From: Vicinamibacteria bacterium
Lineage (GTDB): Bacteria; Acidobacteriota; Vicinamibacteria; Marinacidobacterales; Marinacidobacteraceae
Direction of reading: 5' to 3'
Assembly (NCBI GenBank): GCA_963555995.3
Contig: OY821641.1
Location: 1,120,001 to 1,184,000 of the forward strand
Length of the DNA: 64,000 nucleotides
Shown piece by piece: positions 7,969 through 36,460 of the stretch. The notes beneath the pieces were generated by a model. That model saw nothing but the letters and a program-made list of their open reading frames with translations. It was not told where the DNA came from and did not search any database. The translations under genes were made by a program, and so were the position numbers. The stretch's first letter is position 1; each line of letters opens with the position of its first letter.

Positions 7969-8468
7969 TGCCCCGTCCGGAGTCGGGGGATCCTCCCCGA
8001 GAACCGGAGCCGTCCGGCTCCCGGTTCACCGTCCAGAACCGCCAGCGCCGTTTCGCGGTGGACTCTCCGGCGCTGGCCGCCTTCCTCGAACGGGTCGCGG
8101 CGGACGTGGCGCCGGGGGACCGCCGCGCGGCCACCCTGCGGATCGTTTCGGACCGGAACATCCGGGCACTGAACCGGCGTTACCGCGACCGGGACCGCGC
8201 GACGGACGTGCTCGCCTTTCCCGCCGATCCCGTGCCCGCGGGATTGCTTGCCGAGGAAGAGGCCGCCTACCTGGGGGACCTGGTGGTCTCCGCCGAGACC
8301 GCCGCGCGGCAGGCGCGCGAGGCGGGCGTCGAGCTCGGTGAGGAAATCCGGGTGCTGGCGGTGCACGGCTACCTGCACCTCCTCGGCTACGACCACGAAC
8401 GGGACCGCGGCGAGATGGTGAGGCTCGAGCGCGTCCTGCGGTTGCGGCACGGGCTGCTCCGGAACTGA
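7968..8468 (+). CDS. ybeY: rRNA maturation endoribonuclease YbeY
   Basis: LNRRYRDRDRATDVLAF, LGDLVVS, HGYLHLLGYDH. Confidence 0.96.
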   Translation: MPRPESGDPPREPEPSGSRFTVQNRQRRFAVDSPALAAFLERVAADVAPGDRRAATLRIVSDRNIRALNRRYRDRDRATDVLAFPADPVPAGLLAEEEAAYLGDLVVSAETAARQAREAGVELGEEIRVLAVHGYLHLLGYDHERDRGEMVRLERVLRLRHGLLRN

Positions 8469-21505: not shown

Positions 21506-21760
21506 CCAGTTGCTGTGAAAATGCGGTTCCGGCGCGACGTCAACCAGCGCGAGTGGCGACGCCGGCTGGGAACGCCGGTCTTCAGACCGGCACCGCGGGC
21601 CGAAGGCCCGCGGATGTCGTGCCGGTGTTCAAGGTGATGATCCGAGAGCCGGGCGCCATCACGTGCGGAAGCGTTGTGCCGTGCGCTGCGCTGTGGCGCA
21701 GCGCGTGCCGGTCTGAAGACCGGCGCTCCCAGCCGTCTCAACCGTTTTCATGCCCGGCGG
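21506..21760. repeat. REPIN-like element (family 1)
   Basis: TGCTGTGAAAATGC end motif, then the GGAACGCCGGTCTTCAGACCGGCAC / GTGCCGGTCTGAAGACCGGCGCTCC pair. Confidence 0.85.
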
Positions 21761-22012
21761 GCTCCCTGCATTGGCGGGGTCTCCGGGCGGGAGCTCCCAG
21801 CACTACGGGAGTCTGCTGGCCGGGGACTCCATGCATTAGGAGAGCCGGTTGGTGGGAGCTCCCAGCACTACGGGGGTCTGTTGACCGGGAACTCCATGCA
21901 ATAGGAGCTTCGGTTGGTGGGAACTCCATGCATTGGCGGGGTCTCGGGGCGGGAGCTCCATGCACTACGGGGGGCCTGCTGGCCGAGGACTCCATGCAGT
22001 AGGAGGTTCGGA
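21757..22012. repeat. Degenerate tandem array, 8 units of 32-34 bp
   Basis: Core GG(G)A(G/A)CTCC(A/C)(T/A)GCA with CTCC at 21762, 21794, 21827, 21859, 21892, 21924, 21956 and 21990. Confidence 0.85.
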
Positions 22013-22036
22013 TGGCGCGGCCCACCAGCCCGGGGA

Positions 22037-25000
22037 CTACGCCGCCTGGGGCGGTGTGCCGGCGCGGTCGTAGGCGAGCGCGAACGAGCGCTCGCTCATC
22101 CACTGCCGGAAGCCGGGGTTGTCCATGAACTGCTTGAAGAGCTCGGTGTCGTCCTTCATCAGGGCGGTCATGACCCGCAGCAGCGCCTTGTCGTGTTCGA
22201 TCCGGGCGTTCTCCCGGTCGGAGTTCTCACGGGCGTTCCGGAACGCGGCGTCGGCGGCGACCCGCGCCGGGATGGTCTCGACGATCAGGCGCTGCACCCG
22301 GTCGGCGTCCTCCCACTGGATGCCGCCGAAGAGATCGTTGAACTCCCGTAGGATGTTCGACAACTGGTCCATCTCCGGCTCGGGACGACGGCCGCCGCCG
22401 TCCGCCGGGACGGGGCCGATCTCGGCGTCCTCGTCGGGGAGGACGATCCTCTCCATCGTCCGCTTCTCGACGCGGTAGCTGTCCATGTCAATCGCGTCGA
22501 GGATGCCGCGCGCGAGATCGTCTTCCCGGGGCGAGGGGAGCTTCGGGATCAGGAAGTTCAGGAAGATCGAGAGCCGCTCCCAGGCGGCGTTCCCGTAGGG
22601 GAGGACGGACGCCAGGAAGGCGTAGGTCCGCACGAACGCCTTCGCCTTGCCCTTGAAGTCCACCTGCCCGTCCTCGTCCAGCTCCGCGAGATACACCGCG
22701 ACGCACGCGTCGAGGATCGGATCGAGCCGGTCCCGGTCCGTGCCGTCCAGGTAGAGCTTCACGAGGTCCTCGACCTGCCCGGCGGAGTACACGTGGGAAC
22801 CGTCGAGGTCCGCCTTCAGGTCGTGGAGCTTGTCGGGGTCGGTCTCCTCGGCGAGGATGGTGGTGCGGTAGAAGTCCGCGAAGGAGTCCCGGATCGTGTC
22901 CGCGTCGTTCAGGAAGTCCAGCACGAAGACATCGTGCTTCCCCGCGTGCTCGCGGTTGAGCCGCGACAGCGTCTGCACCGCCCTGATCCCGGAGAGCGTC
23001 TTGTCCACGTACATGGTGTGGAGCAGCGGCTCGTCGTACCCGGTCTGGAACTTGTCCGCGCAGACGAGGAAGCGGTAGGGGTCCTCCCGGATCTTCCCGG
23101 CGATCCGGCTCGACGGGAAGCCGTTCAGGGAAGCCTCGGTGACGGTCGCGCCCCCGAACTCGAAATCGCCGGAGAACGCGACGATGGCCCGGTAGCGGCT
23201 CTTCCGCGCGGTCAGGGCGTCGCGGATGGCCTCAAAGTACTGGATCGCCCGCGCCACCCCGTTGGTGACCACCATCGCCCGCGCCTCGCCGCCGATCTTG
23301 CCCTGGCGGAGCACCTGGTCGTGGAAGTGATCCACCATGATCTCCGCCTTCAGGCGGATCGCGTGGTCGTGGCCCTCGACGAAGCGCCGGAGCTTCCGGT
23401 GCGCCTTCCGCGCGTCGAACTCGGGGTCGTCCTCGACCGTCTTCGCCAGCTTGTAGTAGCTCGCCACCGGCGTGTAGTGCGCGAGCACGTCCAGGATGAA
23501 CCCCTCCTGGATCGCCTGCTTCATGGTGTAGCTGTGGAACGGGCGGTGCTTCACCGCGCCGTCGGGCTGCGGGTCCGGGACGCCGAAGAGTTCGAGCGTC
23601 CTGTTCTTCGGGGTCGCGGTGAAGGCGAAGTAGCTGGCGTTCGGGAGCAGCTTGCGCGACTCCATGAGGCGGTTGATCCGGTCCTCGGTCGTCTCCTCCT
23701 CGTCCTCCCGGCCGGCCTCGGAGAGCGAGCGGGTCATCGCCGCCGCCGTCCGGCCGCCCTGGCTCGAATGGGCCTCGTCAATGATGATGGCGAAGCGCCG
23801 ACCCCGGTGCTCGTCGCCGATCGCGTCGAGGATGAAGGGGAACTTCTGGACCGTCGAGATGACGATCTTCTTGCCGGACTCGAGGAACCGCCGCAGATCG
23901 CCGGAGTCCTCGGCGTGCCCGACGGTGGCCCTGATCTGCGCGTACTGCCGGATCGTGTCGCGGATCTGGGTGTCCAGGATCCGCCGGTCGGTGACCACCA
24001 CGATGGAGTCGAAGACCGGCGCGCCGTCCTTCGCGAGCCCGATGAGCTGGTGCGCGAGCCAGGCGATGGAGTTGCTCTTCCCGCTCCCCGCCGAGTGCTG
24101 GATCAGGTAGCGCCGGCCCGCGCCGTGCCCGGCGGCGTCGGCGAGCAGCCGGCGGACGACGTCGAGCTGGTGGTAGCGCGGCCAGATCTGGCTCTTCCGC
24201 TTCTTCCGCGTCGTCCCGTCCTTCGTGGCGACGAGCTGCGCGTAGTTCTCGAGGATGTTGGCGAGGCTCTCGCGCCGGAGCACCTCGCGCCACAGGTAGC
24301 CGGTCCGGATGCCGCCGGAATCGGGCGGGTTGCCCGCGCCGTCGTTCCAGCCGCGGTTGAAGGGGAGGAAGCGCGATCCTTTCCCCTTGAGTTCGGTGCA
24401 GAAGCGCACCTCGCCCTCGTCCACCGCGAAGTGCGCCACGCATCGGCCGCACTCGAAGAGCTTCTCGCGCGGGCTGCGGTCCCGTTCGTACTGCGTGACC
24501 GCGTCGGCCACCGTCTGCTTCGTGAGGTTGTTCTTCAGCTCGAAGGTGAAGACCGGCAGCCCGTTGACGAACAGCCCGAGGTCGAGCGCCCGCCGCGTCT
24601 CGTCCCCGCTGTAGCGAAGCTGCCGGGTGACGGTGAACCGGTTCGCGGCGAAGCGCTCCCGCGCCTTCGGGTTCTCGGCCGACGGCGTGCAGTAGAAGAG
24701 GTCCAGCGAGTGCGCCCGGTGCCGGACGCCGTGCCGGAGCACCTCGATGGTCCCGCGCTTCGAGATCTCCCCCTGCAGCCGCGCCAGGAACGCCCGCCTC
24801 CGCGGCGTGTCCTCCGCTAGGTCGAGCGACGCCGCCGCTTCCGGCTGCATGGCGCGCAGGAAGGTGGCGAGCTGCGCCAGGTCCACGCAGTACTCCCGGT
24901 CATAGTCCCGCGGGTTCCCGCACGCCCAGCCCACCCCACCATACCCGGCGGCCGGCTCGGCCACCCCGTCCGCCCCCACCGGATCGCACGGCTGCCCCGT

Positions 25001-25063
25001 CAGCGCAGTACAGATCAGCCGCTCCAGCCCCCGCTCCGACGTGTCGGTCGCCTTAGCCACCAT
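22037..25063 (-). CDS. hsdR: Type I restriction enzyme R subunit
   Basis: LDLGLFVNGLP..ELKN nuclease motif, QHSAGSGKS Walker A, DEAH, TATP, KFQTGYD, QTLSRLNR. Confidence 0.97.
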   Translation of the reverse strand: MVAKATDTSERGLERLICTALTGQPCDPVGADGVAEPAAGYGGVGWACGNPRDYDREYCVDLAQLATFLRAMQPEAAASLDLAEDTPRRRAFLARLQGEISKRGTIEVLRHGVRHRAHSLDLFYCTPSAENPKARERFAANRFTVTRQLRYSGDETRRALDLGLFVNGLPVFTFELKNNLTKQTVADAVTQYERDRSPREKLFECGRCVAHFAVDEGEVRFCTELKGKGSRFLPFNRGWNDGAGNPPDSGGIRTGYLWREVLRRESLANILENYAQLVATKDGTTRKKRKSQIWPRYHQLDVVRRLLADAAGHGAGRRYLIQHSAGSGKSNSIAWLAHQLIGLAKDGAPVFDSIVVVTDRRILDTQIRDTIRQYAQIRATVGHAEDSGDLRRFLESGKKIVISTVQKFPFILDAIGDEHRGRRFAIIIDEAHSSQGGRTAAAMTRSLSEAGREDEEETTEDRINRLMESRKLLPNASYFAFTATPKNRTLELFGVPDPQPDGAVKHRPFHSYTMKQAIQEGFILDVLAHYTPVASYYKLAKTVEDDPEFDARKAHRKLRRFVEGHDHAIRLKAEIMVDHFHDQVLRQGKIGGEARAMVVTNGVARAIQYFEAIRDALTARKSRYRAIVAFSGDFEFGGATVTEASLNGFPSSRIAGKIREDPYRFLVCADKFQTGYDEPLLHTMYVDKTLSGIRAVQTLSRLNREHAGKHDVFVLDFLNDADTIRDSFADFYRTTILAEETDPDKLHDLKADLDGSHVYSAGQVEDLVKLYLDGTDRDRLDPILDACVAVYLAELDEDGQVDFKGKAKAFVRTYAFLASVLPYGNAAWERLSIFLNFLIPKLPSPREDDLARGILDAIDMDSYRVEKRTMERIVLPDEDAEIGPVPADGGGRRPEPEMDQLSNILREFNDLFGGIQWEDADRVQRLIVETIPARVAADAAFRNARENSDRENARIEHDKALLRVMTALMKDDTELFKQFMDNPGFRQWMSERSFALAYDRAGTPPQAA

Positions 25064-26537
25064 GCTCCTCCCCGGCCGGGCCGCGAGGGAAGGGAGCGCC
25101 GGTCTTCAGACCGGCACCGCCCGCCGCAGGCGGGCGAGGACGTCTCCCGGGTCGAGTCTCGGATACTCCCGGAGGATCGTCCATCGGCAACCGCGACGCC
25201 GCCTCACGCACGTCCAGCTTCCCGGTGACGACATCGGCGATGAGCCGGGTGCGGTATTCGTTCAGGTGGGAAATGGCATCGTTCGATTTCTGCACGTATT
25301 GGTCGATGATCGCGCTCCGTGCCGTGACGAACCTGACGATCGCATGCTGCTCGTCCCGTGTTGGACAGAGGAGCGGGAGACGTAGGAACTCGTCCGGATA
25401 GAGGCGCAGTCGCGATGGCCGAATGCCCGTCGACCGGCGCCTGTATTCACGCTTGTAGGGAGTGGTTCGCAGCAGGAGTTCCACGTAATCGCCGACAAGT
25501 CTGGATGATGGTCGGGGACGGTAGACAGCGTACGAGGGACTCACGATACCGGTCTGCCGAGCCAACCCAAGAGCTGCCATCCAGGCCCACATCGTGTTGA
25601 CCACGATGTCACCCTCCTGACACAACTTATGCCCAACGTGCGATTCTGCTTTGAACATCGTTACGTTCTTTTCGCTGCGTGGCGTGACACCGGTCATGTG
25701 AGATACCGACATCAGTTCTTCGGTGCCCGTGGTGGAACGGTCGTCCGATTCACGGAAAGCCCGCTTCGCTGCTGGTGCCGACCAATGTTCCGGAATCTCC
25801 CGCAACCAGTCCACGCCGCAGTCCTTGTAGGCCGGGTAGGGCTTTCCGGTCCGGACGTCGATCTGGCCGGTGACAGCCTCGTGAACGAGGGCCTGCTTCT
25901 GCTCCTCCAGCAGCGCGATCCGCTTCTCCTTCGCCGCGATGGCGCGCTGGAGCCGCTGGTCGGCGTGGTCGAGGAACCGAGCGATGGCACGTTGTTCGGT
26001 GAGGGAAGGACCCAGGAACGCCGCTCCTCCGATTGCGTTAGAGCCCAATCCAATGATTGTCGTTCCACGCGCCTTAGACAGAAAATACGCATTCACCACA
26101 GAGCAACCGAGATACCAGAACAGATAGCGCGAATGCACGCTCGACAGATGCGGGCGAATCATCGTTAGGTGATATCCGCACACAACGTCTTCCAAGGGCT
26201 CTGCGACAATCGAGACATTGGCGATCCGCGTCGGAACTACCGAGTCCTTTGTGAGAACGATGTCGCCCTCTTGAAGCGAGTAGTTGTGGATTTCCTTCGT
26301 ACTCACCGATGCGGTTTCGAGTTTCAGCGCATCCCGAATCTCACTCACGTGGTAGACGGAGTCAGTACCGAGGAACCTGATATTGACTTCGCCTTCGCGT
26401 TGATTCCTGTCAACGCTGCTAGCTCGTAGGTCCGCGACGTGCTTTAGCTTCGCGAGCCGCCAATTGACGGGGATGTCCCCCAACCAATCCACGCCGGAAT
26501 TTCGGTAGGCCGGGTACGGCCTCAGTTCGGCGATCAC
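25053..26537 (-). CDS. hsdS: Type I restriction enzyme specificity subunit
   Basis: Two TRDs, each preceded by PYPAY(R/K)xxGVDWL; EQRAIARFLD..LLEEQKQALVHEAVTG and EYRTRLIADVVTGKLDVR spacer helices. Confidence 0.96.
   Translation of the reverse strand: MIAELRPYPAYRNSGVDWLGDIPVNWRLAKLKHVADLRASSVDRNQREGEVNIRFLGTDSVYHVSEIRDALKLETASVSTKEIHNYSLQEGDIVLTKDSVVPTRIANVSIVAEPLEDVVCGYHLTMIRPHLSSVHSRYLFWYLGCSVVNAYFLSKARGTTIIGLGSNAIGGAAFLGPSLTEQRAIARFLDHADQRLQRAIAAKEKRIALLEEQKQALVHEAVTGQIDVRTGKPYPAYKDCGVDWLREIPEHWSAPAAKRAFRESDDRSTTGTEELMSVSHMTGVTPRSEKNVTMFKAESHVGHKLCQEGDIVVNTMWAWMAALGLARQTGIVSPSYAVYRPRPSSRLVGDYVELLLRTTPYKREYRRRSTGIRPSRLRLYPDEFLRLPLLCPTRDEQHAIVRFVTARSAIIDQYVQKSNDAISHLNEYRTRLIADVVTGKLDVREAASRLPMDDPPGVSETRPGRRPRPPAAGGAGLKTGAPFPRGPAGEEHGG
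25092..25125. repeat. Single REP unit inside the 3' end of hsdS
   Basis: GGGAGCGCCGGTCTTCAGACCGGCACCGC. Confidence 0.75.
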
Positions 26538-26746
26538 GCGATCGGCGCCTCGTTGCGCACGAAGCGAAGGCGAATCAATCCGGGCCGCTGCGCAAACTCG
26601 TCGAAATAGCAGGCAACGGCCTCCTCGACGTTGCGGCGGATTTCCTCGACGGAGTCGCCCTGGGTGTGGATGCCGTACCCGAGGGCCGTGGCCGAATAAC
26701 CGCCGTCCACCTCGTCCTCGCGGACCTCAAAGATGATCTCGGGCAT
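26534..26746 (-). CDS. HicB-like antitoxin (orphan)
   Basis: EDEVDGGYSATALGYGIHTQGDSVEEIRRNVEEAVACYF; stop overlaps the hsdS GTG. Confidence 0.85.
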   Translation of the reverse strand: MPEIIFEVREDEVDGGYSATALGYGIHTQGDSVEEIRRNVEEAVACYFDEFAQRPGLIRLRFVRNEAPIA

Positions 26747-26812
26747 GGTGCCGCCTCCGGGCGAATGCCGGGGCAGGGTAGCCGATGGCGGGGAGGAGCG
26801 CCGTCAGCGCAG

Positions 26813-27340
26813 CTTTGCTGTGTAAATGCAGTCCCGTTGGTCCGCGTCGGAGCGCCAGCCTCCGGCTGGCATCGCGCGGGAGCGCGAAACAGGCATGATC
26901 GGTCCTCCTGCACACCCCGTCGGGCATGAAAACAGCGAAGACGGCTGGGAGCGCCGCTCTTCAGAGCGGCACAGCGGGCCGAAGGCCCGCGGATGTCGTG
27001 TCGCTGCTTGCGGTGATGAACCGAGAGCAGAGCGCCACCGCGCCGGCCCGCGTCGTGCCGTGCGCTGCGCGGTCGCGCAGCGCGTGCCGGTCTGAAGACC
27101 GGCGCTCCCAGCAGGCGGCGCAGCCCACGCTGGTTGACCCTTCGCCCAGACTGCACTTTCACAGCAAACCCGCGCTGAGGGCGCTCCTCCCCCTGAACGC
27201 GGCCACGTTCGGCTCGTTTCGGACGGCGCGACGCCGTTCCGGGTTGGGACCGCGCGAATGGGAACCGGTTGGAGCGCGCGTTTCGCGGCCTGCGGCCGCG
27301 ATGCCGACCGGAGGTCGGCGTTCCGAGGCGGCGGCGCCAT
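26813..27340. repeat. TIR-bounded MITE-like REP composite plus adjoining module
   Basis: TTTGCTGTGTAAATGCAGTC ... GACTGCACTTTCACAGCAAA inverted ends enclosing three REP hairpins, followed by the module shared with 13990-14165. Confidence 0.8.
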
Positions 27341-27405: not shown

Positions 27406-27627
27406 TCAGCCTTCGCGGGCCTTTCGGCGAGCCCTTTCCCGCCAGACCTCCGGATCCTCGCACCGGTCCCAGAGGGCGGCCAGGAAGGGATCGGACGGCC
27501 GCCGCGCCTCCTGCCGACGGAGCCGCTCCTCTACGGAAAGTCCGGCGACCTCGGCGTCAATCCGGGCGCGGGCTTCGCGCATGAAGCGAACGGCGTCAAA
27601 CCTCTCGGGGGGGCGCTCATTGGTCAT
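27406..27627 (-). CDS. Small PIN-associated protein, paralog 3
   Basis: MTNERPPERFDAVRFMREARARIDAEVAGLSVEE, same motif as the ORFs at 30063 and 30296. Confidence 0.75.
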   Translation of the reverse strand: MTNERPPERFDAVRFMREARARIDAEVAGLSVEERLRRQEARRPSDPFLAALWDRCEDPEVWRERARRKAREG

Positions 27628-27770: not shown

Positions 27771-28205
27771 TCAATCGTCGCCCGTTTCGCGCTCGGACGC
27801 GCGCACCCAGTCTTCGAGCCGCAGGCCGGGGATCCGTTCGAACTGTCGGGTGTTTCCGGTCACGAGGACGCCGTCGAGCGCCAGCGCGTGCGCGGCGATG
27901 GCGGTGTCGAAGTCCTCCAGGAGGACGCTCCGCCGCGCCAGGTCCGCCTTGATCTGCCCGAAAATGCCGCTCACGTCGTCAGTCCACTCCGCGCGGGGCT
28001 GCGAGTCGGCGAGGACGCGGAAACGATGCGTCAGGCGGGTGCGCCGGGCGGACTCGGGCAGCCGGGCCAGTCTGTAGGCGATTTCGGCGAGAACGGGTTG
28101 CGGAATCAGGATGTCGCCTGCGGACCTCGCGGTGAACTGCTTCCAGATGCGCGGCTCGTTGTACATCGCGGCCGAAACGGCATTCGTGTCGAGGATGTAC
28201 TTCAC
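27771..28205 (-). CDS. vapC: VapC-family PIN toxin
   Basis: MKYILDTN..VLAEI..DFDTAIAAHA..LVTGNTRQFERIPGLRLEDW. Confidence 0.95.
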   Translation of the reverse strand: MKYILDTNAVSAAMYNEPRIWKQFTARSAGDILIPQPVLAEIAYRLARLPESARRTRLTHRFRVLADSQPRAEWTDDVSGIFGQIKADLARRSVLLEDFDTAIAAHALALDGVLVTGNTRQFERIPGLRLEDWVRASERETGDD

Positions 28206-28456
28206 AGGTCCACGGGCGCTTTCCGGGTCCGGTCAGCGGCGATGATCGAGAGCATCTCCTCCACGGCCTCCCGGTCCTCGTCGTCGGTCGGCCCCGGCTG
28301 GAAGGCGCGGAGCACCTCGGGCCGCCAACTACGCTCGGCGTCAAGCGTCCGCTGAACCGCCCGGGCGATGTAGCGGCTGCGGCTGATGCCCTGAGCGCGG
28401 GCGCTCTCGTCAACGGCCGCCAGCAGGGGGGCCGGCAGGTGGATGGTGGTCGGCAC
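28202..28456 (-). CDS. Ribbon-helix-helix (CopG-like) antitoxin
   Basis: MPTTIHLPAPLLAAVDESARAQGISRSRYIARAV; stop overlaps the vapC start (GTGA). Confidence 0.88.
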   Translation of the reverse strand: MPTTIHLPAPLLAAVDESARAQGISRSRYIARAVQRTLDAERSWRPEVLRAFQPGPTDDEDREAVEEMLSIIAADRTRKAPVDL

Positions 28457-28573
28457 GTTCGTAGAATATAACCTATTCGGTCGGTAAGGTTCGCGTCCGC
28501 TGTCCGGTCCAGTAGATCTCTCTCGGTTCCGCCGCGTTGGGCCTAACGGGACGACGCCACCGCCATCCGGGCG

Positions 28574-28896
28574 GGTTTGCTGTGAAAATGCAGTCGAGCG
28601 GGTTGGCCAACAGCCGTGATGGCGGCGCCGGCCTGGAACGCCGGCTGCAGCCGGCACAGCGGCCCACAGGGCCGCGGGCGGTTTGTCGTTACCCCGGGTG
28701 CGTTGGCGCGCGTAGCCGCACCATCCTGGCGAATGAGGTCCGTCTCGCCGCCCGCCTATGGCGGGCTGTGCCGGCTGAAGCCGGCGTTCCAAGCCGGCGC
28801 CGCCGTTTTCGTGACCGGCGAAGTGCGCCGGAGGACACGCGCATGGGCGTTTCGCGCTCCCGCGCAATGCCGACCGGAGGTCGGCGCTCCAAGCCG
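28574..28896. repeat. Composite REP cluster (family 1)
   Basis: GGTTTGCTGTGAAAATGCAGT end, GGAACGCCGGCTGCAGCCGGCAC / GTGCCGGCTGAAGCCGGCGTTCC pair, GCCGACCGGAGGTCGGC. Confidence 0.85.
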
Positions 28897-28931
28897 GCCT
28901 TGCTATGCGGCGGTGGCAAGTTCGGGACGCG

Positions 28932-29267
28932 TCAGCCGAACATCGAGGACGGGGGCGGCGAGTTCGACGCGGCGACGGCCTCCGGGCTGGGGACCTCGAC
29001 CTCGCCGAGGTCCCCCCAGCCTCGCCGGTGGAGTCGCTGGCGCTCCGCCGCCGTGCCCCCCGCCGCTGCCCAGACGGACGCCGCGAAGGTCCCGATGCCG
29101 AGGAACACCACGTTCCCGGCGATCGCGACCACGAGCACACCGAAACCCATCAGCCAGCACCGCCGGTACCAGAGCCAGAGGAAACTCAGGAAGAATCCGG
29201 GCCAGCGCCAGCCGAGCCGGACCACCCGGCGCTGGGCGCCGAGCCCGAAGAGCGCGTATCGCTTCAT
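28932..29267 (-). CDS. Small membrane protein, DUF2628-like
   Basis: GWRWPGFFLSFLWLWYRRCW followed by TM helices and LHRRGW. Confidence 0.65.
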   Translation of the reverse strand: MKRYALFGLGAQRRVVRLGWRWPGFFLSFLWLWYRRCWLMGFGVLVVAIAGNVVFLGIGTFAASVWAAAGGTAAERQRLHRRGWGDLGEVEVPSPEAVAASNSPPPSSMFG

Positions 29268-29333
29268 CCCATTTCATGCTCGCAGAACCGGGTTGGCTCT
29301 GCGATCACCGTTCCCCATCCGGGTCGCCAGCCT

Positions 29334-29939
29334 TCATCCCGGTGATTCGGGCGGTACGGCAAACATATGGAGCCAGGCGATGACCTGCGGCCGCCGGATT
29401 CCGGAGAAGTGAATTGCCCGGGCCAGTTCGTAGAGCGACAGGCGCTCTTCAGAGAGAAGCCCCGCCAGATCCGAGGGGGAGATACAGCCGAGAATGTGGT
29501 ACAGCGTGAAACGCTCACGACGGGAGGGACTGTCCGATCGGAGAATTCGTGCGAGGTCCGGGCCAGTCGGGGGTTCGGGGTATCCCGCCAGGTGCGCGGC
29601 AATGAGGTGGTCGAGCAGAGGGTGGTCGTCGGGTGCCGGACCCAAGGGTTTGCGGGCGGCGGGCCACGAGAACCACGGCAGCGGCAACGGCGTCCAGGGT
29701 CCGGCGTACTCCGGCCGCGAGTGGAAGTGGGAGACGCGCAGCGGCTTGCCCGGACCCCCGATGAGGGAGCCGTGTTCGCCAAGACCCTCGACACGCGGGT
29801 CGCCACCGGCGGCAAGGCAGGCGCTGACGGCTCGTCGTTCGTGCAGGGCGATGTGTTCTTCGCGGGTGAGGATGTGGTCGGGCGGGTCGTTCGCGGGCGG
29901 GTTGAAGTACGCGTGCCGGACTCTGTCGAAATCAATCAC
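29334..29939 (-). CDS. Hypothetical protein
   Basis: 201-aa ORF co-oriented with the RM cluster with protein-like composition; no family recognised. Confidence 0.6.
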   Translation of the reverse strand: MIDFDRVRHAYFNPPANDPPDHILTREEHIALHERRAVSACLAAGGDPRVEGLGEHGSLIGGPGKPLRVSHFHSRPEYAGPWTPLPLPWFSWPAARKPLGPAPDDHPLLDHLIAAHLAGYPEPPTGPDLARILRSDSPSRRERFTLYHILGCISPSDLAGLLSEERLSLYELARAIHFSGIRRPQVIAWLHMFAVPPESPG

Positions 29940-30062
29940 GATCAGTGTCCCCGCTTCGTGCCGCGCTCCTGTTCCAGCATCGCGCGGACCGCGAATACGG
30001 CCTGCCGGGCCGCGTCCGGGTGTGTCGGTTCGACGACGGGCTCCGGGTGCGTGGGCTGCCGG

Positions 30063-30299
30063 TCAATCGCCCTGGCGTTCCGCCGCCCGCGCCGCCGCGG
30101 CCCTTCGGGCGGCCTCGAGGGGTTCAATGCTGCGGTCCTTCATCGCGGCAAGTTCGGGATGCGTTGGCCGCCGGGCGCGCAGCCACTGGACGAATTCCTC
30201 CGCCGACATGTGCTTCGTCTCCTCGTGGATCCGGGCGCGGGCTTCACGCACGAAGCGAATGCAGTCGAAGTTCTCGGTGGCGGGAGCAGTCATGGTCAC
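30063..30299 (-). CDS. Small PIN-associated protein, paralog 2
   Basis: ENFDCIRFVREARARIHEETKHMSAEE; start overlaps the stop of paralog 1. Confidence 0.75.
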   Translation of the reverse strand: MTMTAPATENFDCIRFVREARARIHEETKHMSAEEFVQWLRARRPTHPELAAMKDRSIEPLEAARRAAAARAAERQGD

Positions 30300-30508
30300 C
30301 TGGGGCTCTCGCCGGTGCGGCTTGCCGAGCGCTTCGCGCGGCTGGCGAACCGGCGCAGGATCGGATCCGAGTACTCGCGGGAGTTGAACCAGCGGCGCAA
30401 CTCCTCCCCGGACATTCCGGCGATTTCGGCGCTGATTCCGTCCCGGATCTTCCGCACGCTCGCCACGCAGTCGAAGTCCTTTGGCTTCCTTTCCGGGTCA
30501 TTCGTCAT
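30296..30508 (-). CDS. Small PIN-associated protein, paralog 1 (putative antitoxin)
   Basis: KDFDCVASVRKIRDGISAEIAGMSGEE; overlaps the end of hsdM-PIN. Confidence 0.8.
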   Translation of the reverse strand: MTNDPERKPKDFDCVASVRKIRDGISAEIAGMSGEELRRWFNSREYSDPILRRFASRAKRSASRTGESPR

Positions 30509-32945
30509 CGGGTAGCTCCCACGGAGACTGGATCGTAACCGGCCGGTACCCCATCTCGCGGTTCACCGCGTCGAAGATCGGGATGCGCCGCCGGTTGACG
30601 ATGTGCTGGAAGTTCCAGCTCACCAGCACATCCGCCCCCGAGACGGTGGCGAGGGCGATGTGGAGGGCGTCGGCGTACATCCGGTCGGTAAGCGCGCCGC
30701 GGTCAATGTATTGGCGGGCGAGGCCCCGCGCGGTCTCGGCGTCTTCAAGCAACTCGGTGTTCGCTGGAGGCACCGCATCAAGCGCCTCCCGCACCCGGGC
30801 GGGCGCCTTCTTGAGTTCCTCGAGCAGGACCGGCGAGAGGAGGAGCGTCACTTCCCCCTGGGCGCACCGCTCCAGCAGCCGGCGTGACGCCTTCTGGAAC
30901 TTTGCTTCCTCGCAGCCGCCGATCACCGACGTGTCCACGTAGATGCGGCGCTTCCCGTAGGGGGCGCGCGGTTCGGCCACCATCAGGCCGTCGAGGAGCC
31001 CCTCGGTCTGCCGTTCGAGCGCCAGGATGTCGGCCCCGATCTCCGCGAGCGTCCGCATCGGCTGCGGCTTGTAGAAGGTGCGGTTGAAGCTGATCTCGTA
31101 GCCGACCTTCACCGCCTCGGGCCGGTACCAGGCGTCCGGGGCGTAGGGCAGCACCTCGCGCCGGAGGAACGCTTCGATGCCGCCCTCCTCCAGCAGCGGG
31201 ATCTGCTCCGTGTCGCGGAGGTCGGTGTCCGGCTCGTACTCCACCACCGCCCGCCGGCCGCCCACGGTCGCTTCGAAGCGGCCCCGCAGCGGGTCGGGTT
31301 CCGTCCCCCGCCCCAGGACCTTGCGGATGACCGCCGGCGCGTTCTCGCCGCGCTCGCCGTCCTCCTTCAGGCGCTTGATCTCGGCGGCCTTGTAGGCGCG
31401 GCCCGGGTCCGCGCCCTCGATGCGAAGCGGGCGCTCGACCGTCACCTTCCAGTAGCCGAAGGCGGCGTTGTCGAAGATCCGGCTCTCGGCGGTCTCCTCG
31501 AAGGCGAGGAAGGCGTCGCAGATGCGGGCGATGTCCGCTTCCGCGAGCTCGCGGTTCTTCTTGCCCAGGTTCTTGCGGAGCGGCCGGAACCAGCCGGTGG
31601 CGTCCAGCAACTGCACCTTGCCCCGGCGGTGCTCCGGCTTGCGGTTCGTGCAGACCCACACGTAGGTCGCGATTCCGGTGTTGTAGAAGAGGTTCAGCGG
31701 GAGGGCGACGATGGCTTCCAGCCAGTCGTTCTCGATGATCCAGCGCCGGATGTTGCTCTCGCCCTGGCCGGCGTCGCCGGTGAAGAGCGAGCTGCCGTTG
31801 TGGACCTCGGCGATCCGGCTTCCGAGCGGGGTGTGCTCCTTCATCTTGGAGAGCTTGTTGACGAGGAACAGGAGCTGGCCGTCGCTCGAACGGGTGACGA
31901 GCGAGAACTCGGGATCGCCCGCGTGTTCGATGACGAAACGGGCGTCCCGCATGTCCTTCTTCCCGCCCATCCGTTCGAGGTCCGTCTTCCAGCTCTTGCC
32001 GTAGGGCGGGTTCGAGAGCATGAAGTCGAACTCGCGGGCGCCGAAGGCGTCGTTCGCGAGGGTGGAGTGCGCGGGGCCGCCCACGATGTTGTCGGCGGCG
32101 GCGCCCTCGCCCTTGAGCAGCAGGTCCGCCTTGCAGATGGCGTAGGTCTCCGCGTTGATCTCCTGGCCGAAGAGGTGGGTGGAGACCTGCTTTCCGCGCG
32201 CGGCGGCGAGCTCGTGCAGGGTCTCTTCCCCGACCGTCAGCATCCCCCCGGTGCCGCAGGCGCCGTCGTAGAGCAGGTAGGTGCCCGAAGCGATCCGGTC
32301 GGCGACGGGGAGGAACACGAGCTTCGCCATCAGCCTGACGGCGTCGCGCGGGGTCCAGTGCTCTCCCGCCTCCTCGTTGTTCTCCTCGTTGAAGCGGCGC
32401 ACCAGCTCCTCGAAGATGGACCCCATCCCGTGGTTGTCGAGGCCGGGATGCCGGAGGGAGCCGTCGCCGTTCCGCACCGGGTCGGGACCCAGGTTGATGT
32501 CCGGCGAGGTCAGCTTCTCGATCAGCCCGCCCAGCGCGTCGCCGTCCGAGAGCCGGGGGATCTGGTTGCGGAACTCGAAGTTGTCGAGGATGTCCTGGAC
32601 GTTCGGCGAGAACCCGTCGAGGTACGCCACGAAGTCGGCGCGGAGCCGCTGGCGGCTGGCGCGCGCCTTCAGGTCGCGCAGGGTGAACCGGGACGTGTTG
32701 TAGAACGCCTGGCCGGCCGCCTGGCGGAGGGCCGGGTCCTGTTCGACGACCCCGACGGCGTCGAGCGACGCTTTCCGGTCGAGCACGGCCTGCTTCGTGT
32801 CCTCCAGCACGGCGTCCAGCCGGCGGAGGACCGTTATCGGGAGGATCACGTCGCGGTACTTGCCCCGGACGTAGAGGTCGCGGAGGACGTCGTCGGCGAT
32901 GCCCCAGATGTAGTTCGCGATCCAGTGCAGGTCGGCGCTCGTCAT
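30498..32945 (-). CDS. hsdM: Type I R-M methyltransferase subunit fused to a C-terminal PIN domain
   Basis: IWGIADDVLR, GEHWTPRD, DGACGTGGM, NPPY, LFYNTGI, GYEISFN; then IYVDTSV..LEEL..ADALHIALA..DVLVSWNFQHIVN (PIN). Confidence 0.95.
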   Translation of the reverse strand: MTSADLHWIANYIWGIADDVLRDLYVRGKYRDVILPITVLRRLDAVLEDTKQAVLDRKASLDAVGVVEQDPALRQAAGQAFYNTSRFTLRDLKARASRQRLRADFVAYLDGFSPNVQDILDNFEFRNQIPRLSDGDALGGLIEKLTSPDINLGPDPVRNGDGSLRHPGLDNHGMGSIFEELVRRFNEENNEEAGEHWTPRDAVRLMAKLVFLPVADRIASGTYLLYDGACGTGGMLTVGEETLHELAAARGKQVSTHLFGQEINAETYAICKADLLLKGEGAAADNIVGGPAHSTLANDAFGAREFDFMLSNPPYGKSWKTDLERMGGKKDMRDARFVIEHAGDPEFSLVTRSSDGQLLFLVNKLSKMKEHTPLGSRIAEVHNGSSLFTGDAGQGESNIRRWIIENDWLEAIVALPLNLFYNTGIATYVWVCTNRKPEHRRGKVQLLDATGWFRPLRKNLGKKNRELAEADIARICDAFLAFEETAESRIFDNAAFGYWKVTVERPLRIEGADPGRAYKAAEIKRLKEDGERGENAPAVIRKVLGRGTEPDPLRGRFEATVGGRRAVVEYEPDTDLRDTEQIPLLEEGGIEAFLRREVLPYAPDAWYRPEAVKVGYEISFNRTFYKPQPMRTLAEIGADILALERQTEGLLDGLMVAEPRAPYGKRRIYVDTSVIGGCEEAKFQKASRRLLERCAQGEVTLLLSPVLLEELKKAPARVREALDAVPPANTELLEDAETARGLARQYIDRGALTDRMYADALHIALATVSGADVLVSWNFQHIVNRRRIPIFDAVNREMGYRPVTIQSPWELPDDE

Positions 32946-33034
32946 TCGGTTGCTGGTCGGGGGAAGTCGGCGGCGGGAGGGTACCCGTCAGCTTGCACAC
33001 GCGGGCGTTTCGCGATTCCGCCCGCCTCTCGGCG

Positions 33035-33552
33035 GGCGATGCCGGCCGGGGGCCGGTGCTCCACTGCCGTCGCGCTGGACGCGGGTCGTCGTTGCGCCTT
33101 TCGCCTCGTTACGCGCCCCCACCGGGAGAAACCGTCATGTTCGGTCCTCCTGCACACCCCGCCGGGCAGGACAGTGCGGGCCGGGACGTTGAGGCCCGGG
33201 GTGGCAGGGACCGTTTGGAACGCCGGCTTCAGCCGGCACCGCCCGCCGCGGGCGGGCGGCGAGACGGACCTCATGCGCCGGGATGGCTCGGCTGCGAGCG
33301 CCCATGCACCCGGGGTAGCGACGAACCGCCTGCGGCCGTGCGGGCCGCTGTGCCGGCTGAAGCCGGCGTTCCAAGCCGTACGTGCCGTCAGCACGGATTC
33401 GTGGTGCGCGATTTCGCCGCGCTTTGCGCAGCGGTGCCGGCTAAAGCCGGCGTTCCAGGCTGGCGGCGCCGTCACGGCTGTTGGCCACCCCCGCAGGACT
33501 GCACCTTCACAGCAACTGGGGCGATGCCGGCCGGAGGCCGGCGCTCCGAACC
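33035..33552. repeat. Composite REP cluster (family 1)
   Basis: Several GGAACGCCGGCTTCAGCCGGCAC-type units and a GACTGCACCTTCACAGCAA end motif. Confidence 0.8.
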
Positions 33553-33564
33553 GTTCGAGCAGTT

Positions 33565-35211
33565 CTACCTTCTGACGATGTGCGGCAGCAGCGTCTCCCG
33601 GTCGAGGTCCGCGCGGCGGGCGATCCGGGGGGTGATCGTCAGGATGATGTCGGACTCCGTCAGGTTGTCGGAGTTCTGGCCGAACAGCCGGCCGATCACC
33701 GGCACGTCGGCGATTCCGGGAAGCCCGCTGAGGCTGGTCCGCTCTTCCTGGCGGATGAGGCCCGCGATCATGCTGGTCTCGCCGTTCCGGAGGCGCAGGG
33801 TCGTCTCCACGTTGCGGTTGCCGAAGGTCGGGAGTCCCGAGTAGCCGGTGCCGGACACGTTGTCGAGCCGCACCTTGAGGTCGAGCGTCACGCTGTCGTC
33901 GTGATGGATCCGGGGCGTGACCTCGATGCTGACGCCCACGACTTCGTACTCGAAGGTCGTGGTGGGCTGCTGCGCCAGGCCGCCGGTGGCGATGGGGGCG
34001 AAGGTGGTCACCGGGACCGGGACCCGCTCGCCGAAGTCGGCGAGCGCGGGCTTGCCGTCCGACGCCCGGAGCTGCGGGTTGGCGAGCACGTGGGTGTCGG
34101 TGTCCGAGCGGACCAGGTTCAGGATGGCGCCGGGGAGCCCCGCGACCTGGAGGCTGTCCCGGTCGTAGGGATTCTGGAGCACGGTGTCGAGGCGCGGGGT
34201 GAGCGCCACCGAGATGCCGTCGGTTCCGGCCGAAAGCAGGGGGATGCCGTACTGCTCGAGGTGGGTCCGGTTCACCTCCATGAGCTCGACGTCCACGATC
34301 ACCTCGCCGGGACTCCGGTCGAGCGCCTCGATGATGCGCTGCGCCGAGCGGACCTGTTCCCAGGTGTCCACCAGCGTGATCGAGTTCGTCCCCGCGTGCT
34401 GGGCGACCTGGCGGAGCCCCAGCACGATGCGCAGCGTGTCCGTGGTCTGCGTGAGGTCCGCCGAGGAGAGGTAGAAGGTCTGCGCGACCTGCTGTTCGTA
34501 CTGGAGCCGCTTGTTCTGGGTGTCCGGGACGATGGTGATGAGGTGGGGCGACTCGACCCGGAAGAAGTGTCCGGTGGTCTCGGTGAGGCTGCGGATGGCG
34601 TCCTCGAAGGTGGAGTCCTCCGCCTCGATGGAGACCGTCCGGTCCGCGAAGTCCTCGTCGAAGGCGACGTTGACCCCGGCGATCTCGCCCAGCGTCAGCA
34701 GGACGTAGCGAAGGCTCGCGTCCCGGAAGACGAAGCTCGCTGGCGCGCGGGCGTCCTCCGGCACGTCGAGGCCGAGGGGCCGCGTCAGGGCCTCCTCCTT
34801 GAGCTCGGCGAGGGTCAGCGCGCGCGCTTCCTCGGCCTGGTCCCGGACCGCCTCCTGGATGACCGCGAGGCGCTCCTGGTAGGAGGTCTCCTCGGGCGCC
34901 AGGATGATGGCCGCCCGGAGGGCGTCCTCCGCCGCGCCGTAGTCCTTCAGGGCCGCGAGGCGCTCCGCCTCCTTCGCCTGCCCCTCGGCCGCCCGCAGCT
35001 TGGCGCGGGTCAGCGAGAGCCGGGCCGCCGCATCGGAGGGGTCCTCGGCCACCGCCCGGGCGTAGTGGACCACCGCGTCGTCGTAGCGGCCCATCCGTTC
35101 CGCCGTCTCGCCCGCCGTGAAGTGACGGCTCGTGGCGCAGCCGGCGAGGCCGGCGGCGAGGAGGAGCGCCGCGACGGGGAAGCCTCGCGGGTTCCCTCCG
35201 GGGAACGTCAT
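33565..35211 (-). CDS. Lipoprotein secretin with N-terminal TPR (GspD/PulD-like)
   Basis: Lipobox LAGC, TPR helices, N domains, secretin core (VLANPQL, GERVPV, VGVSIEVTP, LRNGETSMIAGLI, GLPGIADVPVIGRLF, ITPRI). Confidence 0.9.
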   Translation of the reverse strand: MTFPGGNPRGFPVAALLLAAGLAGCATSRHFTAGETAERMGRYDDAVVHYARAVAEDPSDAAARLSLTRAKLRAAEGQAKEAERLAALKDYGAAEDALRAAIILAPEETSYQERLAVIQEAVRDQAEEARALTLAELKEEALTRPLGLDVPEDARAPASFVFRDASLRYVLLTLGEIAGVNVAFDEDFADRTVSIEAEDSTFEDAIRSLTETTGHFFRVESPHLITIVPDTQNKRLQYEQQVAQTFYLSSADLTQTTDTLRIVLGLRQVAQHAGTNSITLVDTWEQVRSAQRIIEALDRSPGEVIVDVELMEVNRTHLEQYGIPLLSAGTDGISVALTPRLDTVLQNPYDRDSLQVAGLPGAILNLVRSDTDTHVLANPQLRASDGKPALADFGERVPVPVTTFAPIATGGLAQQPTTTFEYEVVGVSIEVTPRIHHDDSVTLDLKVRLDNVSGTGYSGLPTFGNRNVETTLRLRNGETSMIAGLIRQEERTSLSGLPGIADVPVIGRLFGQNSDNLTESDIILTITPRIARRADLDRETLLPHIVRR

Positions 35212-36033: not shown

Positions 36034-36112
36034 CCGGTGGATGGATTTTCTTCAAGTATAACTTGACGCTGAGGCGCTGCTGTCCACACACGGCGCGGCG
36101 CGCATGTCCGCC

Positions 36113-36440
36113 GGGTTTGCTGTGAAAGTGCAGTCTGGGCGAAGGGTCAACCAGCGTGGGCTGCGCCGCCTGCTGGGAGCGCCGGTCTTCAGACCGGCAC
36201 GCGCTGCACGACAGCGCAGCGCACGGCACGACGCGGGCCGGCGCGGTGGCGCTCTGCTCGCGGTTCATCACCGCAAGCAGCGACACGACATCCGCGGGCC
36301 TTCGGCCCGCTGTGCCGCTCTGAAGAGCGGCGCTCCCAGCCGTCTTCGCTGTTTCATGCCCGACGGGGTGTGCAGGAGGACCGATCATGCCTGTTTCGCG
36401 TTCCCGCGCGTGCCGGTCTGGAGACCGGCGTTCCAGGCCG
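36113..36440. repeat. REP composite, near-identical inverted copy of ~26880-27172
   Basis: About 290 bp match the reverse complement of the 26.9-27.2 kb element with only a few differences. Confidence 0.88.
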
Positions 36441-36460
36441 GCGCGCGATCCGGGCTGCGG

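Follow-up and report, generated by a model that had tools for sequence, protein, structure and literature searches.

A VapC-like PIN domain joined in frame to the type I methyltransferase HsdM, with a small partner gene downstream, in a Vicinamibacteria restriction locus

Introduction

The toxins known to back restriction systems, such as PrrC and RonA, are separate proteins. PrrC is a protein of its own with an ABC ATPase, and is kept inactive by the restriction-modification (RM) system (bioRxiv 2024.01.29.577857). In Ronin, a system without hsdR, a separate membrane toxin of 61 amino acids (aa) is suppressed by HsdMS (bioRxiv 2023.04.06.535777). For PIN genes that share a transcript with a type I RM operon, a survey describes separate genes in unconserved arrangements, and the same 2017 survey states that a direct interaction between toxin-antitoxin (TA) and RM systems had never been shown (Matelska et al. 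2017, PMC5499597). The present work concerns a window, that is, a whole stretch of 64,000 nucleotides (nt) from a Vicinamibacteria bacterium (contig OY821641.1, positions 1,120,001 to 1,184,000), in which an hsdM gene runs in frame into a VapC-like PIN domain and is followed directly by a small partner gene.

With VapBC, the locus shares the PIN fold, the acidic triad and a small overlapping partner gene; it differs in that the toxin gene comes first, the partner lies downstream, and the toxin is covalently carried by HsdM. The antitoxins of VapBC are of the RHH, AbrB, Phd or HTH type, whereas the partner family found here matches none of these as a group. PrrC/EcoprrI offers the likeness of a predicted RNA-cutting toxin within a complete type I hsd locus, but here a PIN joined to HsdM, and accompanied by a partner gene of its own, is the effector, and no domain or PADLOC match to an ABC-ATPase anticodon nuclease was found in the fusion protein or the scanned neighbours. 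As in Ronin (RonA plus HsdMS), a toxin is tied to HsdM/HsdS, although the window locus has an uninterrupted hsdR. Polymorphic toxins consist of a conserved N-terminal carrier with a C-terminal toxin that is swapped by recombination, followed by a cognate and additional immunity-like genes. Exchange of a C-terminal toxin on a conserved carrier is common to those systems (PMC3482391) and to this one, and the small genes stacked behind the fusion, some divergent and some tandem copies, are candidate counterparts of the immunity-like genes. Here, however, the carrier HsdM is a methyltransferase of the cytoplasm, Pfam reveals no domain for secretion or delivery, and the swapping is limited to alleles of one PIN family.

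Two further comparisons concern PIN proteins near or within defence systems. The survey of Matelska et al. (PMC5499597) also places a PIN nuclease beside hsdM/hsdS, and its available portion names no fusion. In PcrIIC1-Cas9 (PDB 8wmm), a PIN-fold protein is physically tied to a defence nuclease complex, but PcrIIC1 is a separate enhancer subunit with no partner gene mentioned in the available part of PMC13153721, whereas the PIN described here is fused and has a partner. No earlier description of an HsdM-PIN fusion was found in the literature searched, mostly without subscription papers, and Figure S7 of PMC5499597 and the embedded-gene tables of bioRxiv 2024.01.29.577857, which lie beyond the available portions, might hold a case. 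What is new here is the toxin-like PIN fused to HsdM, an undescribed partner family and a polymorphic exchange; the linking of a toxin to type I RM was already known.

The HsdM-PIN fusion gene

The original prediction, made from the letters of the window, described a complete HsdM continuing in frame into a PIN domain. The 815-codon open reading frame (ORF; Table 1) bears this out with every motif it had named: GACGTGG at residue 228, NPPY at 312, GYEISFN at 615 and VAEPRAPYG at 656 on the methylase side, and YVDTS at 669, LEEL at 708, ADALH at 758 and SWNFQHIVN at 776 on the PIN side. Pfam assigns HsdM_N to residues 9-145, N6_Mtase to 171-486 and PIN/PIN_3 to 668-779, with no other domain, and the PADLOC model MTase_I matches the HsdM part at E 7e-231; the protein thus shows what identifies a type I HsdM, namely HsdM_N together with an N6-adenine methyltransferase domain in which motifs I and IV are present. 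On the whole protein the PIN matches are weak (E 3e-4 to 6e-4, below cut-off), while PF01850 rises above its cut-off when the PIN domain is scored alone (24.8 vs 23.6 bits). The HsdM part closes with the segment that forms the C-terminus of its unfused relatives, which stop 1-20 residues past the aligned EGLL.

The fusion is genuine. Its junction (~30983) is crossed gap-free by contigs in all four runs aligned, from two studies. Contigs of runs X1 (30928-31068), X2 (30860-31068) and X4 (30700-31068) show 0 differences from the window and come from one study, which possibly includes the window's source; that of run X5 (30871-31037), from a second study that its record describes as a sponge metagenome, differs by 10 substitutions and nothing else. 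The crossing pieces appeared in a narrow contig alignment, none being listed in a wider one, and they confirm at the level of assembled contigs a junction for which the original prediction had called for raw reads. An assembly error is rejected, given these contigs and the fusion homologues found in many clusters.

To collect these homologues, 7998 candidate proteins between 448 and 1427 aa long were scored with residues 600-815; 3417 of them matched, and the best 120 were analysed. All of them, proteins of 457-943 aa, cover 97-100% of the stretch, so that the fusion occurs in at least 120 protein clusters, a lower bound, from several phyla, some clusters being near-copies. The architecture is therefore shared by relatives, as the prediction had proposed to check, and a one-off fusion is rejected. 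Where a named record shows hsdM immediately upstream of the PIN, it belongs to Acidobacteriota, Gemmatimonadota, Latescibacterota or Gammaproteobacteria, groups that are typical sponge symbionts. The distribution is patchy: a strong PIN match was present in one of 15 genomes of the same genus, and the full junction in four of 400 genomes of the phylum, one of them with a stop. When the methylase part alone is compared, its 120 closest HsdMs include 11 with a PIN and 109 without (84-87% identity). On viral contigs nine PIN loci were found, none with hsdM and three with a partner.

The linker is almost constant in length, with 53-56 residues separating the two flanking motifs in 114 of the 120 fusions. 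It lacks Met in 52/120 and has Met at the 655 position in 57/120; four of 19 loci lack any ATG, GTG or TTG from the final helix of HsdM up to the PIN, and a Shine-Dalgarno-like word precedes any such codon in 2/19. An internal PIN start at Met655 is thus rejected as a general rule, the conserved start codon being absent across the 120 fusions and 19 loci, although the window's own gene may use it. Because there is no conserved internal start, the PIN is likely produced as part of HsdM. No sigma-70 promoter was found within 29300-33600, and RNA runs contained a fraction of 0.05-0.08 of the sequence words.

A V/A-x-E-x4-Y word was seen in the linker (30954-30983) and near the N-terminus of HsdR (~24965), as well as in the linkers of the natural PIN-partner fusions P0196 and P0199; the shorter E-x4-Y/H is present in 65 of the 120 fusions. 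A literature search for this linker motif yielded no paper.

The PIN domain

The model of the PIN domain reaches a predicted local distance difference test score (pLDDT) of 90, and its best structural match is 7vwo_A (Z 12.6, root-mean-square deviation (rmsd) 2.5, 127 residues aligned). VapC structures such as PDB 7vwo, 5k8j and 6sd6 score Z 10.9-12.6 at 13-22% sequence identity to solved VapCs, and Foldseek agrees, its top matches being VapC/PIN. Roles were assigned by motif position, with an Asp after strand 1, a Glu in helix 2 and an Asp at the start of helix 4. The corresponding residues are conserved in the best 120 fusions (D671 in 120, E710 in 120, D759 in 118); since that set was selected by similarity, 11 fusions were picked separately via HsdM alone, and 11/11 keep all three. 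At the site after the last PIN strand, the 120 have Asn778 without exception and His781 in 116. Some active VapCs have Asn at this site. Asp or Glu is described as almost invariant at this position in PMC5499597.

The PIN is less conserved than its carrier, with a mean identity over the 120 fusions of 53% vs 75-87% for the HsdM parts. In 20 locus pairs with PIN identity of at least 72%, the ratio of nonsynonymous to synonymous change (dN/dS) is 0.09-0.23; the window's own PIN forms no pair reaching 72%. By these ratios the PIN is under purifying selection, and positive selection as the source of its divergence is disfavoured at dN/dS of at most 0.23. Synonymous distances of PIN vs HsdM differ either way (L025-L117, 0.99 vs 0.46; L025-L121, 0.80 vs 1.24). 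No NCBIfam family at cut-off, PADLOC model or solved sequence relative was found for the PIN. By its fold, its conserved acidic residues and these dN/dS ratios it looks functional, as a predicted VapC-fold nuclease. The intact PIN of the original prediction stands as regards the three acidic residues and purifying selection, subject to one qualification, the Asn at 778 in place of an acidic residue.

The partner gene family and the free module

A PIN profile recovers 2523 representatives at E 1e-10. Of 592 GTDB loci of the PIN clade the best 80 were read, many on short contigs: hsdM stands directly upstream in 13 (11 in frame, 2 broken), and 67 have no matching hsdM. A small ORF lies directly behind the PIN in 79/80 and starts 4-20 nt inside the PIN end in 71/80. 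The encoded partner proteins are small and helical, 44-90 aa long, with the consensus FDxVxxxRxxR, and the window ORF 30508-30296 is a member of this family. Among hsdM-PIN loci (25 distinct loci read), the partner follows directly after the PIN in all 24 that have downstream DNA; in the window it starts with an ATG inside the fusion gene, overlapping the end of that gene by 11 nt, and GGGAG stands 7 nt upstream. On this comparison of loci, the PIN probably derives from a widespread free two-gene module, in which the PIN comes first and is followed by an overlapping small helical gene.

As a group, the partners correspond to no Pfam or NCBIfam family; among 77 members no family matches more than three, all weakly, and searches in Pfam, NCBIfam and the ESM Atlas gave hypothetical clusters only. 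A search for longer fused partner forms gave one weak match. Natural PIN-partner fusions exist in either order (22 long proteins; partner behind in 11, in front in 3), and the model of one, P0131, reaches pLDDT 94 and a predicted template modelling score (pTM) of 0.72 with the partner as three helices; a fold search with this model covered its PIN part. In 19 fused loci, partner identity tracks the PIN (partial rho 0.55, 0/2000 permutations), whereas it does not follow the tail of HsdM (partial rho 0.10, 477/2000 permutations), co-variation of partner and PIN being expected from linkage alone because the two adjoin. The partner is likely the cognate antitoxin of the PIN, a candidacy that position and family membership suggest.

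Apparent exchange and loss, and breakage, of the PIN cassette

Over residues 1-654, proteins P0001, P0006 and P0008 share 97-98% identity, but over PIN residues 704-815 they share 48-50%; in P0006 the identity switches just past the first PIN motif. On an HsdM tree of 220 rows (FastTree), the fused state changes 11 times, nine of them forced by well-supported branches. A single clade of fused HsdMs is rejected by the approximately unbiased (AU) test (p-AU 1e-40, 28 rows), whereas a single clade of fused PINs is not (p-AU 0.57, 51 rows). All but one of 47 fused PINs cluster together in a moderately supported group (86) with three unfused rows inside, so return to a free PIN gene is rare. From these alignments and trees, PIN cassettes appear to have been swapped between HsdM backbones by recombination.

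Two genomes appear, from the sequence remnants, to have lost the PIN: in G018, what is left of the linker at the end of hsdM runs straight into a 3' end of the PIN type, the partner overlap being retained, and G424 likewise retains a linker remnant. Locus L020 (G018:C1:1692000-1708000) has, upstream of an hsdM that seems to have lost its PIN, a free PIN belonging to the fused clade together with four copies of the partner; two further partners follow. In L035 (~8034) and L165 (~3967), the first codon of the PIN, for Tyr, is replaced by a stop (TAA at one locus, TAG at the other), and hsdM is additionally interrupted upstream of that stop in both.

Stacked partners and PIN-partner fusions

Two to five partner copies stand between hsdM and hsdS in 13 of 24 loci. 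Among 23 extra partners, 15 are closer to the first-position partner of another locus than to their own, a count biased upward by taking the best of 21 other loci against one own gene; copy 2 of L048, for example, is 74% identical to a foreign first-position partner vs 36% to its own. Five loci contain a second PIN fused to a partner (Table 1), and D759 or E710 is lost in all five, four of which look related and are hence not independent. These residue-deficient fusions are possibly decoys or broad antitoxins. Proteins P0185, P0195, P0214, P0260 and P0268 also consist of a PIN without a putative catalytic residue fused to a partner, and in G424 such a residue-deficient fusion lies downstream of hsdM even without an active PIN.

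The surrounding restriction locus

Downstream of the window fusion gene, hsdS and hsdR are both present on the same strand, and hsdS is found downstream in 21 of the 25 hsdM-PIN loci. In the genome of the window, the fused clade is represented by a single PIN and the partner family by three genes, every one in this locus.

Table 1. Features of the hsdM-PIN locus in the window, and second PIN-partner fusions at other loci (coordinates of the named locus)
Feature	Coordinates	Strand	Basis
hsdM-PIN fusion gene	30498..32945	-	815 aa, single ORF without stop
Type I HsdM part, residues 1-654	30984..32945	-	HsdM_N and N6_Mtase; GACGTGG and NPPY intact
Linker, residues 655-664	30954..30983	-	sequence variable, length almost constant
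VapC-like PIN domain, residues 665-815	30498..30953	-	D671, E710, D759, N778
Partner gene 1, 70 aa, likely cognate antitoxin	30296..30508	-	family membership, co-variation with PIN
Partner gene 2, 76 aa	30063..30293	-	core 34% identical to partner 1, 74% to partner in L016
Partner gene 3 (internal ATG start inferred)	27406..27627	-	core 40% identical to partner 1
Canonical RHH antitoxin and VapC pair, separate, in hsdM-hsdS interval	27771..28456	-	Pfam RHH_1, PIN; RHH start approximate, NCBIfam VapC match below cut-off
HicB-like gene, 70 aa, overlaps hsdS start	26534..26746	-	weak Pfam match, E 0.017
hsdS	25053..26537	-	Pfam, PADLOC
hsdR, 1008 aa, uninterrupted	22037..25063	-	Pfam, PADLOC
Second PIN-partner fusions	L016 8933-9370; L035 8785-9234; L048 9174-9599; L164 7446-7892; L165 5157-5594		

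Other cargo occupies the hsdM-hsdS interval as well. A lone HicB-like gene recurs there in L019, L020, L028, L152, L154 and L168, with a PIN fusion or without. A 201-aa ORF of the window (29334-29939, minus strand) has no Pfam, NCBIfam or PADLOC match, though the genome encodes two paralogues of it at other places (46% and 36%), and a DUF2628 membrane protein gene (28932-29267, minus strand) also lies within the RM locus. Repetitive extragenic palindromic (REP)-like repeats at 26790-27340, 28560-28920, 33030-33560 and 36110-36445 flank blocks of cargo in the interval, and two short REP-like motifs have 337 and 381 matches in the genome (at most two mismatches, both strands). Immediately past hsdR, a tandem repeat with a unit of 32-33 nt extends over 21759-22029. 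In L016, a 348-aa gene (7132-8178), unlike the cargo of the window, stands just ahead of hsdS.

Proposed mechanism and alternative readings

We propose, with about an even chance of being right, that the locus holds a toxin-antitoxin cassette with the toxin gene in first place, which is tethered to HsdM, passes between loci by recombination and likely makes the locus addictive. The VapC-fold PIN on the HsdM tail would be an RNA-cutting toxin, checked by the small protein encoded directly downstream. A free toxin-first module may have entered the hsdM-hsdS interval and lost its own start by fusing to hsdM; a single origin would be compatible with the PIN tree, with later transfer between HsdM backbones and phyla through recombination in the hsdM 3' end or in the conserved first PIN motif. 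The HsdM-PIN protein would be stable and part of the M2S/R2M2S complex, with two PINs per complex, while the partner would be short-lived and translationally coupled to the fusion gene. Should partner synthesis stop, by loss or replacement of the locus or by phage host shut-off, the PIN would cut RNA and the cell would arrest. Replacement of a cassette would leave the old toxin in place, and its persistence would select for retention of the older partner genes, which would account for the stacks; allele-specific neutralisation would explain both swapping and stacking.

Several observations weigh against this account. No member is known to have toxicity, RNase activity or antitoxin function, and N778 occupies a site described as near-invariantly acidic (PMC5499597). 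The correlation of partner with PIN is inflated by adjacency and by kinship among the loci, the count of foreign-like extra partners by the comparison behind it, and several stacks are plain tandem duplicates (L019 at 96%, L020 at 72-90%). The trees leave gain and loss indistinguishable. The PIN is dispensable and can be lost, as the 109 of 120 nearest HsdMs without it illustrate, and four of the 25 hsdM-PIN loci are broken (L017, L034, L035, L165); with the apparent losses in G018 and G424, addiction is weak at best.

A bolder form of the tethered-cassette account, which we consider doubtful, makes the fusion an intracellular polymorphic toxin on a type I enzyme. Each allele of the tethered PIN would be blocked by its own antitoxin alone, of an undescribed family; the cassettes would be exchanged among co-habiting bacteria, foreign antitoxins and dead PIN-antitoxin decoys would be hoarded, and the PIN pair would fire upon a block of RM or replacement of the locus.

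The original prediction had suggested a guard or addiction architecture, the toxin being built into the M2S/R2M2S complex and set free upon binding of anti-restriction proteins or loss of the system. Its addiction side fits the findings; a PrrC-style latency and release by the RM complex is unsupported, for the PIN has its own partner gene, also in free copies far from hsdM. Nor is the physical release of the PIN supported, because the domain is covalently joined, has no conserved internal start, and would need proteolysis to come free. PrrC-style release by anti-restriction proteins is accordingly graded as less likely in our analysis. In a guard, the PIN-partner pair would sense the RM complex: binding of Ocr or ArdA would alter M2S, displacing the partner or letting the two tethered PINs dimerise, and infection would be aborted, as in PrrC and Ronin (bioRxiv 2023.04.06.535777), which are its precedents. 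The PIN is placed after the HsdM C-terminal segment on a linker of almost constant length, rapid cassette turnover is compatible with phage pressure, and HsdS is the anchoring point for the tails of both M subunits in PacII (PMC9613975), which would bring two PINs together. We nevertheless hold this guard to be unlikely: the module and its partner persist without any RM system, the linker sequence is variable, Pfam finds no ABC-ATPase sensor of the PrrC type, and the four-helix bundle is reported to occur in the open as well as the closed state, which makes it more an anchor than a switch.

Improbable, too, in our view is a passenger PIN, the pair working as it does when free and the fusion being a chance read-through in an insertion hot spot, kept for the start codon of hsdM. 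The hsdM-hsdS interval does collect other cargo, embedded genes are a known feature of type I RM loci (bioRxiv 2024.01.29.577857), no fusion is present in 109 of the 120 nearest HsdMs, and this C-terminus of HsdM also shows chance read-throughs, one into a HicB-like fragment (L172 1712-3841) and one into a DUF262 fragment (P0368). The last two, however, are single truncated cases, set against at least 120 clusters on non-monophyletic HsdM backbones, and the grouping of 46/47 fused PINs makes reversion to a free PIN rare. The least likely of the readings, and one to which we give very little weight, is a non-toxic accessory, which would make the RM complex dimerise or more stable, or would remove RNA around the target DNA, with the partner tuning it. 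Its model is PcrIIC1, which matches the PIN model (8wmm_G, Z 10.7, rmsd 3.2, 123 aligned) and enhances Cas9 as a heterotetramer, predicted to sit on the Cas9 C-terminal helix (PMC13153721). Yet nine entries, almost all VapC toxins, score the same as PcrIIC1 or above, the module is free in most genomes, the putative active-site residues are conserved, and an enhancer leaves allele swapping and stacked partners unexplained.

Significance

A toxin domain covalently joined to HsdM makes the connection of TA with RM systems physical, and testable with one gene pair. The analysis points beyond this locus to a widespread toxin-first PIN module with a partner family that has no Pfam or NCBIfam entry. 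The natural series of PIN alleles on near-identical HsdMs bears, through cross-neutralisation, on the stability and replacement of RM loci. If the intracellular polymorphic-toxin reading is true, restriction and abortive infection would be joined in one machine.

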